A stretch of DNA of 63,947 nt, counting the filler. It is 12 parts of 12 records of this genome, joined end to end, with 100 filler letters (N's around TTAATTAATTAA, not from the genome) between each part and the next. Parts side by side here need not be neighbours in the genome. Positions count along the whole stretch, not along the records: positions 6,691 to 13,204 come from SRR15195285_2079; 11 more parts are not named here. One strand, written 5' to 3'. Numbering within the stretch: the stretch's first letter is position 1; each line of letters opens with the position of its first letter. A program made the position numbers and the translations under genes. Below, in pieces: positions 6,591-13,304 of this stretch. Below the pieces are notes generated by a model that searched no databases, had not been told where the DNA came from, and saw only the letters and a list, made by a program, of their open reading frames with translations.

Positions 6591-6690
6591 NNNNNNNNNN
6601 NNNNNNNNNNNNNNNNNNNNNNNNNNNNNNNNNNTTAATTAATTAANNNNNNNNNNNNNNNNNNNNNNNNNNNNNNNNNNNNNNNNNNNN
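6591..6690. other. Artificial contig linker N45-TTAATTAATTAA-N43 (also at 13205-13304, 17569-17668, 24712-24811, 28590-28689, 33098-33197, 40072-40171, 43680-43779, 47246-47345, 54358-54457, 59605-59704)
   Basis: The identical 100-nt spacer, with stops in all six frames, occurs 11 times. Confidence 0.99.
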
Positions 6691-6785
6691 GGGTCAACCT
6701 AAGACTACTAACATCAACCCCAACTCCACCTCGACCTTCGAAGAGTTACGATGCGCTCCGTATGGAGCCGCCCAAGCTCGCGCCT

Positions 6786-8111
6786 CTACAACCGTGGAGC
6801 GAGCATTGTTGTCGCCAAGCCGACCATCTCCGACTGGTGCAAGAACGTGTACGACTGGTCCGGCGTCTCCTCAGAACGCCATCTCCCATGCGCAGCACGC
6901 AGGATGGAGCTAACCCCCGCTGCCGCCGCCGCCGAGTTGCCACCCCGTCGCAACGCGATTGCTGACAAGCGCTTCGGATCGATTGACGCATCAATAAGCC
7001 CCTCACGCTGGCCCGCCGCGAATAATCCCCGCAGTTCAGCCGTCAATGTCCCCTTGCCAATAGCGCTGCGGGATACGCGCACTTCCCTCGCCGCCAGCCG
7101 AGGGAAAAGAGGGCCACATGCCACGCAACGAGTTCTGGGGTCCGTAGCCTTGCTGCATTGACCTGAGACCCGCAGCCCTGACGCTTCAATCCAGTCCCAT
7201 ATCGTTGTTTCTACGCTCTGCGCGTCGCCACATGCCGCCCCAATGATCGACACCCTGCCTCGACCAACTGGATCGTTCTTGGCCTTACAGACCCGCACTT
7301 TCGTGCAAACTGGCTCTCTCCATACATCACATCGGTCGAGTCCGTCAACTTCTGACTTCCTTAAGTAAGCCATGAATCCAATGCATACCATCGCCTTTGC
7401 GCGAGCCAGCCGCAAACTCGACCATTCAGTCCCTTTTGGTGACCAAGCCCGTCGCAATTGCACAAAGGACTTGATGTGCTCCGGCGTCACTACCACCGGC
7501 TCGTCGACGCCGCGCACCCGCCCGGTTCTAGCTACGGCCTCCAGTAACGTGCGGATCTGGGGGCCGCCCGTAGCCGCCTGAAGTCCGTAGCTCGCGTGGA
7601 TAGCTGCCACCGCCGCCAAGCTTGTCGATATCGTCGAATCTGCGTATCGTTCGCTCAGCCAAGCCACCCACATCGTCACGATTGTCGGTGGAACAGGAAG
7701 TGGCACTTGCTGCCATTGCGATGCCCAATGCAGTTCAACGCAAAACTCAGCAAACACCCGCCACCAGTGTGTGTACGACCGCTTCGTGGACTCCGCCCGC
7801 GCTGCCGCTTGCAGCAAACGCGCCCGTTCTAGGAGCTGCGCCGCGTCAGGAACCGAGTTCAACGGCGTCCACGTGCTCGGATCGGACGTCTCCAGCACCC
7901 AGTCTTGTGGCACTGCCACTGGCACGCCACTCTGGGCCAACCCCACCTGTGCTGAAGCCCTTTTCCTACTCCAACTGTTGGTGTGGCGCGATACCGCCTG
8001 AGACGCCAGCGGGCCCGGCCCGTGGCTCGCGGTTGGCCCTTGTAGACTGAACAACGTGCTGGCCTCGCGCCTCAAGTCATTCCAAAAGCCGTCTTCCATG
8101 TCTCCTGACAT
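6786..8111 (-). CDS. Tyrosine recombinase (YR) of the DIRS-like element
   Basis: N-terminal core-binding region (STKRSY..WWRVF..FC; STISTSLAAVAAIH), YLRKSE (Arg), KAKNDPVGRG (Lys), IALRRGG (Arg), HGRWRS (Trp) and DQSY (Tyr). The ATG at 8111-8109 overlaps the pol TGA. Confidence 0.92.
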   Translation of the reverse strand: MSGDMEDGFWNDLRREASTLFSLQGPTASHGPGPLASQAVSRHTNSWSRKRASAQVGLAQSGVPVAVPQDWVLETSDPSTWTPLNSVPDAAQLLERARLLQAAARAESTKRSYTHWWRVFAEFCVELHWASQWQQVPLPVPPTIVTMWVAWLSERYADSTISTSLAAVAAIHASYGLQAATGGPQIRTLLEAVARTGRVRGVDEPVVVTPEHIKSFVQLRRAWSPKGTEWSSLRLARAKAMVCIGFMAYLRKSEVDGLDRCDVWREPVCTKVRVCKAKNDPVGRGRVSIIGAACGDAQSVETTIWDWIEASGLRVSGQCSKATDPRTRCVACGPLFPRLAAREVRVSRSAIGKGTLTAELRGLFAAGQREGLIDASIDPKRLSAIALRRGGNSAAAAAGVSSILRAAHGRWRSEETPDQSYTFLHQSEMVGLATTMLAPRL

Positions 8112-11100
8112 CACACAACACGCTCGGTCAAGCTAGATTCACTATGCCTCACAGCGCTGCCAACCCGACCCCGTGTTGACCAGGCTCGCATCTCCGCAGT
8201 TACCGTGAACACCCGTCGCTCTGGTCGCAAGTCAAACGAGACTCTACGTTGTGAGCTTGCCCGTTCACCTGCTCCGGTGAAGTCCAGTATCACTGCTGAC
8301 ATCGGCCATGCTGGTATCCGGCGCTGCGCTGCTGGGCTGCGAAACACCGCGTATGCCGGCCCCAATTGAATCGCCGCCAGTGAGAATTTTTCCACCGCTG
8401 CCATTGCAGGGCCGTGCCAGCGAGGTACAAGCACACATGCGCGGCTCCGCCGTTGACGCAAGTGCCCAATGTAGTCGGCGATGTGGTTGCCACCGGGGAA
8501 AACGATTGGGACCGACCTCTCGTCTGAGTTTTCACCGTATGCCGCTCCTGACACCACTTCCCGCGTGAAAATCATCTTCGGCTCGCCCCACTGTCGAACC
8601 CACAGTCGTAAATCAAGCGCAACTTTTCGGAACAACGTCCAATCACATGCCTGTGCCCACCGCTGACGGCTCAGTGCGTCTGTTCCTGACGCCTGCATGT
8701 GCACCCCTGACATCCACTGCACTTCGAGCCGCGCCCCCCGAGCCAGAAGCCACCGCCAGATGCGTTTCACCACCCCGTTGAACTGCAAACTGCCACTGCC
8801 ACCACTGTTGACCATCGCCTCGACCCCTTGATTATCGGAACCGTAGCCTATCACAGCTCCTCCCAGTGCCCCGTTTGATCCCTCCCGCAGCATTGCCGCT
8901 GCCTGACCTGGCGGCATGTCCAGAGCTGCCCGTGCTGTTGCGCCCTCGACGTGAGCCCGCACCACCCGGTCTGAGAAATCGACGCCCCGCCTGTCAAACG
9001 CCAACAGCGATTCTTCCAGACACATCAGCTCCCGCATCGACTGATCTTCACAGGCTTGCTGTGGCGGCCACGCATCGAACGACTCCTTCACCACGCCTGA
9101 CCCTCCATCGCTGCAAGACGCCCATGTCCCCCTGGCTCCCCAACCCTCCGGTCCTGCATCACCATCGATGCGCACCGTGCACGGGGTGCGATCCGGCAGC
9201 AATTTTCGCCCGAACGCGTTCCAACGCGACAACTCTCTTGCCCAGAAAACCAGCTCCTCCACGCATCCAGGCGACAATGCCAACTGGGCATCCCACTCGG
9301 CTGCCGTCTCGCACCGCACCAGTGCGTACGTCTCACGGCTCATGAGCCGCACGGGTTGAAGCGCACGACTGCAAGCCATCAGTTTCCCTGTGATTTTGGC
9401 GAGACGACGCGCCGTAGAGAACGAGCCCAGCGTCCTCTCCTCATTTTCCAACAGCGACAAGATCTCCGCTACTTTCCGGTTCGACACATGAATTCGCCCG
9501 CGCGTCAAGTCGATGACGTATCCGAGCCATTCAATCACCTTTACCGGCGTCAAGACACTCTTCTCGAAGTTCAGCGGTAGACCCAATCGTTTGCAATCGT
9601 TGACCACCCCCGTATAAACCTTGCCCTGATATTCACCACCGTGGAGCACCGCCTCCATTTCCCCATCCGTCTCCGTGAAAAAAATGCAGTCATCTAAATA
9701 CCATAGGCAATCGATTCCCTGTGACCTCCATCGCCGTGCCAAACAACGCATCGTTTTCGTATACACCCACGCTGAGAGCTTGTTCCCCATTGACAACGCC
9801 CGCCATGTCAACGTGACTTCAATGAACTCGTCACTCTCTCCTGCGATTGGAACCGCCGATAGCCCCGCCGCCACTCTATCGCCAGTTGGCAGCCACGACG
9901 GCCGCACCCGCGCGTAGAAGCACATAATCTTCGCAGGGCCGCAGAAAATAGCGTGATATCCGGATTTCATGTCCAACGAGGCCGCCCTACCGCCTCTCGT
10001 AGCAACCGCAGGCAAGTGGCGTAGCCCTTCGAAACGGCACCGTCGATCCGGCAGGCCTCGTTCGCGGTTCGGCGTTCGCCAATCGTGTATCACGCGGAAA
10101 TCGTTCTCTACTTTCTTCGGCACGCAGTCGATCGGTGTGACGAAAACTGGCTCCCCGTCATCGTCTCCCCACACCCGCACTGCCCGCGTCCGCAGCAGTT
10201 TCTTCACACCGTCGTCTAGGTGCTGCCGCGCTGCGCCCTTTACTGGCCGCGCAGGTTCGTCCACTGGCGTCAAGTCTGGCATTTTTACCTGAAACCCTGA
10301 AGGATGCTCAATCCATTTCGCCACCATCTCCGGCATCTCTGGGACCATCTGCCTCCACCTCGCCGCGCATTCCGCTGGGGTGTCGGCACCACAGGACGGG
10401 TCCGCACCATGTATCGCCCCTGCCACGAACGGCGGCGAGACCCGACAGCCTGGTGGGTTCTCATACTCATCAGGCTCCGGTGCCAACGACAGCTGCTCCC
10501 ACTCGCTGGGTGTTGGGAGATCAGCCAAGCCATGCAACGATGCCCGCTTGCCTCGTAGTGGCCGCAACCTGTCTTCGTACTCCTCTACCTCGTCTACCGA
10601 CCCTGAGCCCACCTCCGTGAGCCAGTCACCATCATACGCGGCCGGATCCGCGATATCAAAAAACGACCATTCCTCATCATCACCTTCACTGTCACTGCCC
10701 TCGTCCTCGCTGCCTTCGCTGTTACCTCTCTCAGCCGCCGTCTCCCCATTACCAGCTGCCTCCCAAATCGGCGGGTTCTGGCGGATGAACTGGTCCACCG
10801 ACTCGCACTGCTTATCGCAGGTAATCAGCTGGCCGAGCGTTCCGTCTTCAAACGCGTCAATTGCGTCCGCCGCTGATACCGCGCCTTGGCAAAAACGCTG
10901 AAAGTCCTGCACGTACGCAGGCGTCAAGCGGTCCGAGTATCGCTGTGTGCCGACCCGCGCCTGCTCCTCCACCAGTGCATCAGTCGTCACCGACGGCCTT
11001 TCCACCTCCATACCGCCCTCCACCTCTATATCTGTCACCATATCCGTTGTGTCTGCAACCACCCCTCGAGCCAGCTGCTCCTTATATCGCATCTCAACCT

Positions 11101-11383
11101 CTCCATCCGACCTGCCCTCATAATTCCCAACACCAACTACTGCCTCTCCGCCCACCAGCGCTGCCTGTGAGCCATTCCCCTTTGTCAGTCCACCTGCCTT
11201 GCCTGTCCCACCCACTCTCTCCGTCCCTGGCACCCCATCCACGTCACTCCCTGTTTCGTGCCCCGTCACTGCACCCGTTTTACACTGCCACTCCACTTCG
11301 TCACCGCTCTGCCCTTCCGCACTACCCCGCTTCACTCCTCGCCGTGCAATCCCTGGCGGAAATCGCTGCGCTCCAGGGTGTCC
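8111..11383 (-). CDS. Pol: reverse transcriptase + RNase H + degenerate methyltransferase-like tail, preceded by an acidic N-terminal region
   Basis: RT motifs PIDCVPKK..FRVIHDWR, SLDMKSGYH, LSMG, WYLDD and EWLG. RNase H motifs DAGPEGWG, RELM, SDNQ and DALSR. The frame is open right up to the gag stop. Confidence 0.92.
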   Translation of the reverse strand, partial: GHPGAQRFPPGIARRGVKRGSAEGQSGDEVEWQCKTGAVTGHETGSDVDGVPGTERVGGTGKAGGLTKGNGSQAALVGGEAVVGVGNYEGRSDGEVEMRYKEQLARGVVADTTDMVTDIEVEGGMEVERPSVTTDALVEEQARVGTQRYSDRLTPAYVQDFQRFCQGAVSAADAIDAFEDGTLGQLITCDKQCESVDQFIRQNPPIWEAAGNGETAAERGNSEGSEDEGSDSEGDDEEWSFFDIADPAAYDGDWLTEVGSGSVDEVEEYEDRLRPLRGKRASLHGLADLPTPSEWEQLSLAPEPDEYENPPGCRVSPPFVAGAIHGADPSCGADTPAECAARWRQMVPEMPEMVAKWIEHPSGFQVKMPDLTPVDEPARPVKGAARQHLDDGVKKLLRTRAVRVWGDDDGEPVFVTPIDCVPKKVENDFRVIHDWRTPNRERGLPDRRCRFEGLRHLPAVATRGGRAASLDMKSGYHAIFCGPAKIMCFYARVRPSWLPTGDRVAAGLSAVPIAGESDEFIEVTLTWRALSMGNKLSAWVYTKTMRCLARRWRSQGIDCLWYLDDCIFFTETDGEMEAVLHGGEYQGKVYTGVVNDCKRLGLPLNFEKSVLTPVKVIEWLGYVIDLTRGRIHVSNRKVAEILSLLENEERTLGSFSTARRLAKITGKLMACSRALQPVRLMSRETYALVRCETAAEWDAQLALSPGCVEELVFWARELSRWNAFGRKLLPDRTPCTVRIDGDAGPEGWGARGTWASCSDGGSGVVKESFDAWPPQQACEDQSMRELMCLEESLLAFDRRGVDFSDRVVRAHVEGATARAALDMPPGQAAAMLREGSNGALGGAVIGYGSDNQGVEAMVNSGGSGSLQFNGVVKRIWRWLLARGARLEVQWMSGVHMQASGTDALSRQRWAQACDWTLFRKVALDLRLWVRQWGEPKMIFTREVVSGAAYGENSDERSVPIVFPGGNHIADYIGHLRQRRSRACVLVPRWHGPAMAAVEKFSLAAIQLGPAYAVFRSPAAQRRIPAWPMSAVILDFTGAGERASSQRRVSFDLRPERRVFTVTAEMRAWSTRGRVGSAVRHSESSLTERVV

Positions 11384-13177
11384 CTATATCGGGTGCCCCT
11401 GTCGGTCGATCTTGCCTGCTGCTAGCATCGTGCGGAGCTCCGGACACTCCCACGCAAAATGACCTACTGCCGCGCACCAACGACACTGCAGAGAGTTCGG
11501 CACCGTGCCTCCAACGCCTTGAGACCGCACCTGATCGTCCAGGTAGTTGTTCTCCAGGTGCAGCAGCATCCCTGACTTGCCACGGAGCCTGTTCTGCTGC
11601 CCCCCAGCGTGCACTCCTGGAGGCTGCTGCGGCATCCATGCAGGCAGTACTGCACCTGCTCCTCTGCCCATGGGCGCTGCCTGACCACCAAAACCGCCTG
11701 CCTGGAAACCCGCGGACTGACCACCCCCTGCTTGGAATCCACCGCCTGGGCGACCTCCACCAAAACCGCCCATGCTCCCCCCGCCGCCCTGGAACCTCCC
11801 AAAACCACCTGCCTGGAAACCCGCGTTCTGACCCTGGAAACCACTCCCGCCTTGACCCCAGACCGTCCCACCACCACTGTGCACGTGACCTGCTGGCCCA
11901 TTTCCAAACGTCTTCTCAGCCCGCTTCTTCAAAGACTTTTCCATCTGTTGGTACTCCGTCATCGCCTCCGAACCATACTGTTCTGTGTCGTCCAACTGAG
12001 ACAAAACCCGCAGTCCGTACGCACCATCCCTGGCCGCTACCGAGTACAGCTTGAGCTTCTTACGCTGCGTCGCCAGCTTTTCCGTCAAGCACTTGCCTGG
12101 CGTCCCCCCTGCCGCGCAAATCTCCGCCTCCATATCCTCAGTCTCATTCAACTCTCTCTCCAATGTCATAATCTTGTCCCTCCACGCGGCTTGGTCGGGT
12201 GGCAGCGCAACAGAGGCGAGAGTAGCTGCGGTGGCGCGCGCACGATTTTCGAGTCGCTCCATCTTGGCCTTCGCTTCGCCCGTCATGACGCCACTGCGCC
12301 GCTCCGACGCGTCTAAGATCGCCTTCAGCCGCTGCTCTTGGAGCGATCCGCCGCTGGCGCCACCTGCTGCCGGAGCCCCACCTGCTGGTGACTCCGCGGC
12401 GGCGTCCTCGTCCAGTATGCCGATGACCCGGTGTACTACCGTGCTGATGTCGCCAACCGCCTCCATAGCTTCGTCGTTCTCGACGCCCTGCAGCAGGATC
12501 GCGTGAATGAGCGGCTTGGTCGCCGGAGTGAAACTGCCTGCTGTCAGCAAGCGGCGGCGGGCTGTACGCTGGTCCGGGCCGAGGAGGAACTGTAGCAGCC
12601 GTCGGAAGCGCCGCTCGACTTCCACCTCCTCGTTGTCGTACTTCCGTTTTTCTCCCTTCTCTTGTGCAGCCGGTGCCACGCTGATGTCCTCGTGGTTCGC
12701 ATGCGAGAAGGCCAGGAACTGGCGTAGCATCCAGAGCGTGTAGTTCATCACAGGGGCCACGCCTGTCAAGGCTGCTGGCAGCCCTGCTGGCAGGGCACCC
12801 AGGTCGTTGAGGGCAGCCTTCACCTGCTCGTAGTTCTTGGTGCTGACTACCATCGTCGCTGAGTCCATGCAGCCTATGTCCCAGTCCGCAGGCAACGAAC
12901 CCCAGTCTCCGCCGTCGAGCGCATTCCGGTCAGACTTGACGAGCCACGCCCTCAGCTGCGCCACCGTGCCTGAGGTGTCAAGCCCACGTGCCCGGGTCTC
13001 CAAGAGGAGAGGACCCTTGAGACAGTTCGAGTAGAGCTTGAAGACGCCAGCCACAGGAGCCTGCCCTTTTCGGAAGCCGAGGCCGCGCAGGATGAGGGTA
13101 GTCGGGCCCATGGACGGGAGAGAGCCAGCCGCTCCGATGGCGTGGCCGATGTCGCTGATCGCAGGTTGGGTAGACAT
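11384..13177 (-). CDS. Gag-like protein with CCHC zinc knuckle
   Basis: CRWCAAVGHFAWEC = CX2CX4HX4C (11444-11485), Gly-rich GFQAGG repeats, a coiled coil, and an ATG in an AAAAATG context. Confidence 0.85.
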   Translation of the reverse strand: MSTQPAISDIGHAIGAAGSLPSMGPTTLILRGLGFRKGQAPVAGVFKLYSNCLKGPLLLETRARGLDTSGTVAQLRAWLVKSDRNALDGGDWGSLPADWDIGCMDSATMVVSTKNYEQVKAALNDLGALPAGLPAALTGVAPVMNYTLWMLRQFLAFSHANHEDISVAPAAQEKGEKRKYDNEEVEVERRFRRLLQFLLGPDQRTARRRLLTAGSFTPATKPLIHAILLQGVENDEAMEAVGDISTVVHRVIGILDEDAAAESPAGGAPAAGGASGGSLQEQRLKAILDASERRSGVMTGEAKAKMERLENRARATAATLASVALPPDQAAWRDKIMTLERELNETEDMEAEICAAGGTPGKCLTEKLATQRKKLKLYSVAARDGAYGLRVLSQLDDTEQYGSEAMTEYQQMEKSLKKRAEKTFGNGPAGHVHSGGGTVWGQGGSGFQGQNAGFQAGGFGRFQGGGGSMGGFGGGRPGGGFQAGGGQSAGFQAGGFGGQAAPMGRGAGAVLPAWMPQQPPGVHAGGQQNRLRGKSGMLLHLENNYLDDQVRSQGVGGTVPNSLQCRWCAAVGHFAWECPELRTMLAAGKIDRQGHPI

Positions 13178-13304
13178 TTTTCTTGTAGATGAGGTGGTGT
13201 AGTCNNNNNNNNNNNNNNNNNNNNNNNNNNNNNNNNNNNNNNNNNNNNTTAATTAATTAANNNNNNNNNNNNNNNNNNNNNNNNNNNNNNNNNNNNNNNN
13301 NNNN

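Follow-up and report, generated by a model that had tools for sequence, protein, structure and literature searches.

The window analysed here is a stretch of 63,947 bases made up of 12 separate contigs, which are joined by spacers of the form N44-TTAATTAATTAA-N44 (6591-6690, 13205-13304 and nine more). One of these contigs, of 6514 nt and with 61% G+C (6691-13204), carries on its minus strand a probable tyrosine-recombinase retroelement with open reading frames (ORFs) for a Gag-like protein (ORF1), for Pol and for a recombinase-like protein (ORF3). Gag and pol lie in the same frame and are separated by a single UAG, and relatives of the Gag protein end at the same residue. This arrangement is in our judgement best explained by low-level readthrough of the UAG, which would give a fusion of Gag with the reverse transcriptase and RNase H (RT/RH) in a protease-less, tyrosine-recombinase-type (Ngaro-like) element, and we give this explanation about an even chance of being right. 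The in-frame stop, being conserved, is a genuine lead that can be tested, while the hairpin similar to that of murine leukemia virus (MLV), which the original prediction had placed downstream of the stop, does not hold up.

On the minus strand the junction reads CCG AUA UAG GGA CAC CCU GGA GCG CAG CGA UUU CCG CCA GGG AUU GCA. When the strand is translated between 13177 and 8111, the 1689 positions obtained contain one internal stop, at position 598, besides the terminal TGA. Re-translation thereby agrees with the original prediction, according to which gag and pol share one frame that is interrupted by a single TAG (11386-11384) and is otherwise open to the end of pol. The further claim that no AUG occurs for about 100 codons after the UAG also proved correct, as 97 codons without AUG or stop precede the first AUG at 11092-11090. 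As a separate observation, Gly-His-Pro codons flank the UAG on either side (GGGCACCCG AUA UAG GGACACCCU, 11369-11398) and form a short imperfect direct repeat.

Within the 97 codons frame 0 contains no stop, and the other two frames contain 4 and 6. Given the local composition, 97 open codons are expected by chance with P ~0.02, and the 222 open codons up to the conserved region with P ~1e-4. The layout of the ORFs is therefore moderately beyond chance. A codon model trained on the RT/RH and the recombinase ORF was applied in windows of 150 nt. Frame 0 scored highest in 31 of 33 windows, including all 22 downstream of the TAG, and both exceptions sit in the Gly-rich repeats of gag (11678-11977). 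The first two windows past the TAG gave -3.83 in frame 0 versus -3.96 and -4.24 in the other frames, and -3.94 versus -4.08 and -4.29. The stretch after the UAG looks coding in frame 0.

Variation between populations was taken from assembled Logan contigs of public sequencing runs (labelled X1, X2, X4 and X16), which were placed on the element contig; the variant counts rest on 40 of 76 variant places. Synonymous changes outnumber non-synonymous ones in the conserved part of pol (10 versus 3) and in ORF3 (7 versus 3), and in gag 4 synonymous and 10 non-synonymous variants were counted. Pol and the recombinase ORF are under purifying selection. No variant was found between 11025 and 11592 among these 40 places. 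The bin 11269-11486, which includes the stop, is without cover in X2 and has some cover in X1 (3.01) and X4 (1.5).

The position of the gag stop was compared with relatives that were collected by a HMMER scan of 1.84 billion representative proteins, with residues 300-1499 of the read-through product as query. The scan gave 2450 matches, 150 of which were listed, each with its best stretch, and statements on matches below refer to these 150. Two of them, P0030 and P0031, match the C-terminus of Gag and end exactly with the residue that precedes the UAG. Expansion of their 90% clusters added P0152 (471 aa), P0153 (262 aa), P0154 and P0155. In all six of these relatives, each of which bears the zinc knuckle domain, Gag ends in GHP followed by I or M, aligned to the GHPI that precedes the stop in the element studied here. 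The six proteins, encoded on contigs of 541-4742 nt, represent two 90% clusters and are 59-68% identical in the knuckle domain; in their Gag C-termini G, H and P do not vary up to the penultimate residue. A third Gag lineage (P0156, P0028) stands outside this count, its members ending in the Gly-rich region before the knuckle, at a stop or a contig end. Judging from these alignments, the family has conserved the position of the gag stop.

In this reading the contig would hold the interior of an active tyrosine-recombinase retroelement from a marine protist, whose single genomic RNA would be translated into Gag, ending at the conserved UAG. A near-cognate tRNA would decode the UAG-G at a low rate, and the ribosome would go on in frame. 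The product would be a Gag-linker-RT/RH fusion of ~1690 aa, which could carry small amounts of RT into the Gag assemblies, and since no protease is encoded the fusion would stay uncleaved. Readthrough is in line with a frame that stays open and coding-like past the stop, with a Gag that is conserved to its final codons, and with the large unprocessed fusions of the family described below. The layout, the position of the stop, the coding-like frame and the selection can be read from the data; readthrough itself, like its rate and its signal, is inferred. A stimulator, if there is any, probably lies in the immediate context (the GHP-I/M codons and UAG-G) or in an element that is not recognisable from one sequence, and is probably not the 6-bp hairpin.

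Several observations weigh against readthrough. Gag and pol would share a frame by chance in 1 of 3 cases. The lead of frame 0 amounts to just 0.13-0.14 in the first two windows past the TAG, versus 0.2-0.5 in most others. The three variants among the 40 places that fall in the linker between the UAG and the conserved part of pol are all non-synonymous, and all lie downstream of the first AUG. No independent contig piece crosses the TAG among the pieces listed. In none of the 150 listed matches does the best stretch run across the UAG, and no relatives of the linker are found among these 150 of the 2450 matches; the matches of the pol relatives start at query residues 520-537, ~220 residues past the UAG. 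The called pol proteins P0002, P0004, P0005 and P0157 start at their own Met or GTG near the conserved region. To these are added ten folds of 34-150 nt, starting from or just past the stop, with z-scores of -0.35 to +1.29, and a search of Rfam with E up to 10, which gave no match at the junction and two chance-level matches elsewhere on the contig.

A fused Gag-Pol relative was also sought by word-indexed protein searches, with the 68-aa Gag C-terminus as query (against proteins of 120-2000 aa and of 37-119 aa) and with the full fusion. These searches were empty, which is weak evidence; the full fusion gave 0 matches from 8000 scored candidates, among which low-complexity words dominated. The genome-contig and viral-contig collections, scanned with pol and gag alignments, gave no match. 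Nine metagenome loci (L001-L009) obtained with the alignment of the Gag C-terminus were dropped as irrelevant, their Gag being of plant copia type, with a knuckle resembling the one here. The N-termini of P0011 and P0003 were considered as fused Gag and rejected, their best BLASTP E-values against Gag being 4.8 and 0.18.

The strongest competitor of readthrough is that Pol is made separately, starting at the AUG at 11092 or at one further downstream, by way of a subgenomic or internally promoted RNA, an internal ribosome entry site or reinitiation. The shared frame would then be a coincidence, which has the chance given above, and the 97 codons would stay untranslated. A linker without listed relatives and with three non-synonymous variants out of three is what such a start would lead one to expect, as are the relatives whose called pol proteins have start codons of their own close to the conserved part, and the fact that no stimulatory structure was found. 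A precedent is given by the cryptic promoter at the gag-pol junction of Tca2, described in the part of the report seen (PMC2194720). However, the 97 codons are open in frame 0 only, at the probability given above, and frame 0 scores highest directly after the TAG. Scanning ribosomes would moreover have to cross all 1.8 kb of the gag ORF and the AUGs in it. A shorter message was not seen either, the contigs of the RNA library hitting gag (12071-12279) and pieces of pol, with RNA ends invisible in such data. On balance we regard separate initiation as less likely than readthrough but as a serious alternative.

More specific than readthrough as such, of which it is a subset, is the proposal of the original prediction that the UAG-G is followed by an MLV-like signal, consisting of a CCCUGG/CCAGGG hairpin and a possible GCAG/UUGC pseudoknot. 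The arms of the hairpin are present where they had been reported: CCCUGG begins 5 nt past the UAG and pairs with CCAGGG over a 16-nt loop. Their complementarity is perfect, the isolated hairpin has -9.5 kcal/mol and is the minimum-energy fold of a 34-nt RNA, and a UAG followed by G matches the gammaretrovirus context. However, it is the minimum-energy fold only if the RNA is cut to these 34 nt, in which case 64 of 200 shuffled sequences are equally stable, and in the 99-nt ensemble the pair probability of the stem is 0.002-0.003. Perfect 6-bp stems 2-12 nt downstream are found at 87 of the 1665 gag-pol codons, and in 91 of 2000 dinucleotide shuffles. The suggested second stem has 4 bp including one G-U pair. 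No stable pseudoknot or extended stem-loop downstream of the stop was seen in the folds, which were calculated without a pseudoknot-aware program. Thus the arms as such could be confirmed, and their role as a signal could not: thermodynamics, background frequency and Rfam all give no support to the hairpin or pseudoknot as a stimulator. The hairpin is unsupported as a readthrough signal, and an MLV-like programmed readthrough appears improbable.

Slightly less credible again is another way around the stop, namely an intron that excises the UAG in some of the transcripts, or a non-canonical bypass as proposed for Tca2. Nothing favours this directly. For Tca2 a non-canonical bypass was concluded to be necessary, as far as the consulted part of the paper goes (PMC2194720), and as no readthrough signal is recognisable here, there is room for it. 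An intron finds no trace as a contig joint over the junction in the RNA run, which has no cover there, and does not require the frame to run on directly past the stop, as it does.

It is highly improbable that the UAG is a lesion or an error of this copy, or that TAG is a sense codon in the host: nothing speaks for it, the Gag of six out of six knuckle-bearing relatives ends at the same residue, so that the UAG is not a private nonsense mutation, and a reassigned code is unlikely since TAG closes 5 other long ORFs of the window, which has ORFs of up to 2336 aa without TAG. The 24 longest ORFs end with TAG (6), TGA (12), TAA (4) or run off a contig end (2). The original prediction had named sister copies with a sense codon at this place as a sign of a lesion, and the relatives' Gag proteins end there instead.

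Coordinates of the features are compiled in the following table.

Table 1. Features of the retroelement contig, in positions of the window.
Feature	Position	Strand	Basis or remark
Leader, 27 nt to contig end	13178..13204	-	frame open to contig end
Gag-like ORF1, 597 aa	11387..13177	-	relatives P0152, P0153 and P0156 align along ORF1
CCHC zinc knuckle CRWCAAVGHFAWEC near the Gag C-terminus	11444..11485	-	sequence; weak Pfam zf-CCHC
In-frame UAG ending gag, then G; candidate readthrough site	11384..11386	-	sequence; same end in 6/6 knuckle-bearing relatives
Proposed hairpin, CCCUGG (11378-11373), 16-nt loop, CCAGGG (11356-11351)	11351..11378	-	arms present, unsupported as signal
97 codons after the UAG, frame 0 without stop or AUG	11093..11383	-	highest codon score in frame 0
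First in-frame AUG of the pol frame (GAGAUGC)	11090..11092	-	start site if Pol is initiated separately
221-residue Gly/Glu/Asp/Val-rich linker	10720..11383	-	no relatives among 150 listed matches; no Pfam family
Conserved pol: RT, RNase H-like part, C-terminal region	8114..10719	-	relatives 41-62% identical
Pfam RVT_1, pol residues 498-624	9512..9892	-	E 5.2e-8, 33.3 bits, cut-off 29.6
UGAUG, pol stop UGA (8113-8111) sharing a base with the ORF3 AUG (8111-8109)	8109..8113	-	sequence
ORF3, 441 aa, tyrosine-recombinase-like; stop 6788-6786	6789..8111	-	sequence, alignment, language-model features
3' tail, 95 nt to contig end	6691..6785	-	sequence

The gag ORF1 has no Pfam family at E<=0.01. Its CCHC knuckle lies 20 residues upstream of the Gag end and matches the Pfam zf-CCHC families with E 0.023-0.057, under the family cut-offs. 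An Atlas search with Gag gave no usable match. In the Gly-rich part of gag, which contains GGFQAGG-type repeats (11678-11977), two 35-nt direct repeats (11688-11722, 11799-11833) are found. The pol frame spans 11383-8114 (1090 aa) and ends with the stop UGA at 8113-8111; its last 362 residues contain no Pfam family even at E up to 5.

The best Pfam match of ORF3 is its only one, Phage_int_SAM_4 with E 0.12, and no recombinase family was matched in PHROGs, NCBIfam or a PDB profile. The AlphaFold model (pLDDT 36.6) is unusable. In the protein-language-model features of the Atlas, which are a lead only, ORF3 scores 0.98 against clusters of tyrosine recombinases, and of the matches bearing a family the best ten all belong to one family or clan. 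A pattern R..K..RRGG..HGRW..Y is kept, by eye, in the alignment of ORF3 with the C-termini of P0003 and P0011, and we take this pattern to be typical of the tyrosine-recombinase class. Language-model features and motif together are a lead, and only a lead, to ORF3 being tyrosine-recombinase-like.

An RT domain, as in the DIRS order, is present as Pfam RVT_1, the one family above its cut-off in pol, which is also found in P0002, P0003, P0005 and P0011. Neither an aspartic protease or DDE integrase, which DIRS-order elements lack, nor a methyltransferase was found as a Pfam family in gag, pol or ORF3, a missing match being weak evidence. The order gag, RT/RH and recombinase-like ORF, together with the missing methyltransferase family, is that of Ngaro elements. 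The designation "DIRS-like" in the original prediction is reasonable at the level of the order, and the gene order fits Ngaro or PAT better than DIRS1. Among mobile elements it would best be filed as a Ngaro-like member of the DIRS order.

The termini of the element lie beyond the contig, which reaches 27 nt beyond gag on one side and 95 nt beyond ORF3 on the other, and no matching terminal or internal repeats of DIRS- or Ngaro-type termini could be identified on it. Contigs from X1 and X4 (depth 17.9 and 7.76) join position 6720 to position 13168 with 25 other letters between. They have ~3x the depth of the interior, and the joined part 13168-13204 includes the gag start codon (13177-13175). 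They could represent an A-B repeat junction, a solo repeat or an internally deleted derivative.

In P0003 (2095 aa) and P0011 (2372 aa) RT/RH and recombinase are fused in a single ORF, and from these proteins it appears that large unprocessed fusions are tolerated by the element family. P0011, with 31% identity in pol, contains AAA_28 and ubiquitin domains (residues 1542-1894) between RT/RH and recombinase, so that the element family has captured host-like domains. P0160 and P0161, which belong to the cluster of the 59%-identical P0002, are pol fragments labelled as an Actinomycetales metagenome-assembled genome. Here a contig of a eukaryotic retroelement, rich in G+C, was apparently placed in a bacterial genome bin.

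Since the window consists of separate contigs joined by spacers, genes that adjoin in it are not genomic neighbours of the element. A second copy of the element was not found within the window. The other contigs of the window carry long ORFs on both strands, for example for a Sec31-like WD40 protein, and are therefore gene-dense eukaryotic genomic DNA. According to an index look-up, part of the element contig is contained in 19 public runs from 15 studies, which are marine or seawater metagenomes or metatranscriptomes, except one coded organism. By alignment of the assembled contigs, three DNA runs from three studies carry the contig, mostly at 99% or more. The host of the retroelement is an uncultured marine protist. 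In run X2 the sole contig over position 9587 has one extra C that would shift the pol frame, so that either this population has a broken copy or the assembly is in error.

The expression of Pol in tyrosine-recombinase retroelements is essentially unstudied, and the papers, in the parts seen, give no mechanism. No description of readthrough in such elements was found in the literature searched, which did not cover the founding papers and a 2015 review, so that priority is insecure. A conserved in-frame gag stop would make Pol expression testable in a family that is present in the seawater metagenomes of many studies. If readthrough is true here, a third class of retroelements, one without protease, would join the retroviruses and some LTR elements as users of stop-codon readthrough, and in it the Gag-RT/RH fusion would need to function uncleaved; with a separate initiation of pol the case would be an ordinary one. 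A more far-reaching scheme would combine two devices on one RNA, readthrough of the UAG for the uncleaved fusion and termination-reinitiation at the UGAUG for the recombinase, as the first recoding-based strategy in the DIRS order. We consider this combination doubtful.

MLV has gag and pol in one frame with a UAG-G between them; a defined pseudoknot ~8 nt downstream acts as the stimulator there, and the protease cleaves the Gag-Pol fusion, which is the minority product. The element described here likewise has gag and pol in one frame and a UAG followed by G. In contrast to MLV it has no supported structure, its spacer to the candidate stem measures 5 nt, and it encodes no protease. Readthrough in tobamoviruses takes place in the context UAG CAR YYA, whereas GGA CAC follows the UAG here. 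Overlaps of stop and start codons of the type UGAUG or UAAUG serve termination-reinitiation in caliciviruses and in segment 7 of influenza B. The stop of pol and the AUG of ORF3 show the same layout; a contig from an RNA library (X16) spans this overlap (8031-8188). Unlike in these coupled genes, the pol and recombinase ORFs are plainly fused in the relatives P0003 and P0011.

A layout similar to the junction studied here is that of Tca2, a Ty1/copia element of Candida albicans, for which the consulted part of the report describes gag and pol in one frame with a UGA between them and a predicted pseudoknot downstream, and in which the source of Pol has to be the gag-pol RNA (PMC2194720). There the junction alone gave no readthrough, and the reporter signal was explained by a cryptic promoter in the gag-pol junction (PMC2194720). 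Both elements have an in-frame stop between gag and pol and a putative downstream structure proposed from sequence, whereas Tca2, with UGA as its stop, belongs to the LTR elements and has a protease and an integrase (PMC2194720). By analogy, the outcome for Tca2 is a warning for the readthrough reading proposed here.

Among the tyrosine-recombinase elements, those of Ngaro type are similar, for example the ones of Cafeteria burkhardae in the description seen in part (PMC8547959): they are ~6-7 kb long and GC-rich, with a Gag-like ORF1, an ORF2 for RT/RH and a recombinase in ORF3. As in the element described here, neither a protease nor a DDE integrase is part of that description, and the hosts are marine protists (PMC8547959). 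Their layout is given as A1-[ORFs]-B1A2B2 (PMC8547959). In contrast to the Ngaro descriptions, no terminal split direct repeats are present on the contig here, and Pfam, NCBIfam, PHROGs and a PDB profile all fail to recognise the recombinase. The ORFs of tyrosine-recombinase elements overlap or are frameshifted according to the portions of the literature consulted (PMC3266345, PMC3783388, PMC6681497, PMC9210276, PMC7192593, PMC8547959, PMC12440569). Compared with the overlapping or frameshifted ORFs described there (PMC3266345, PMC3783388, PMC6681497, PMC9210276), the element from the marine protist differs by the in-frame stop at the end of its gag.

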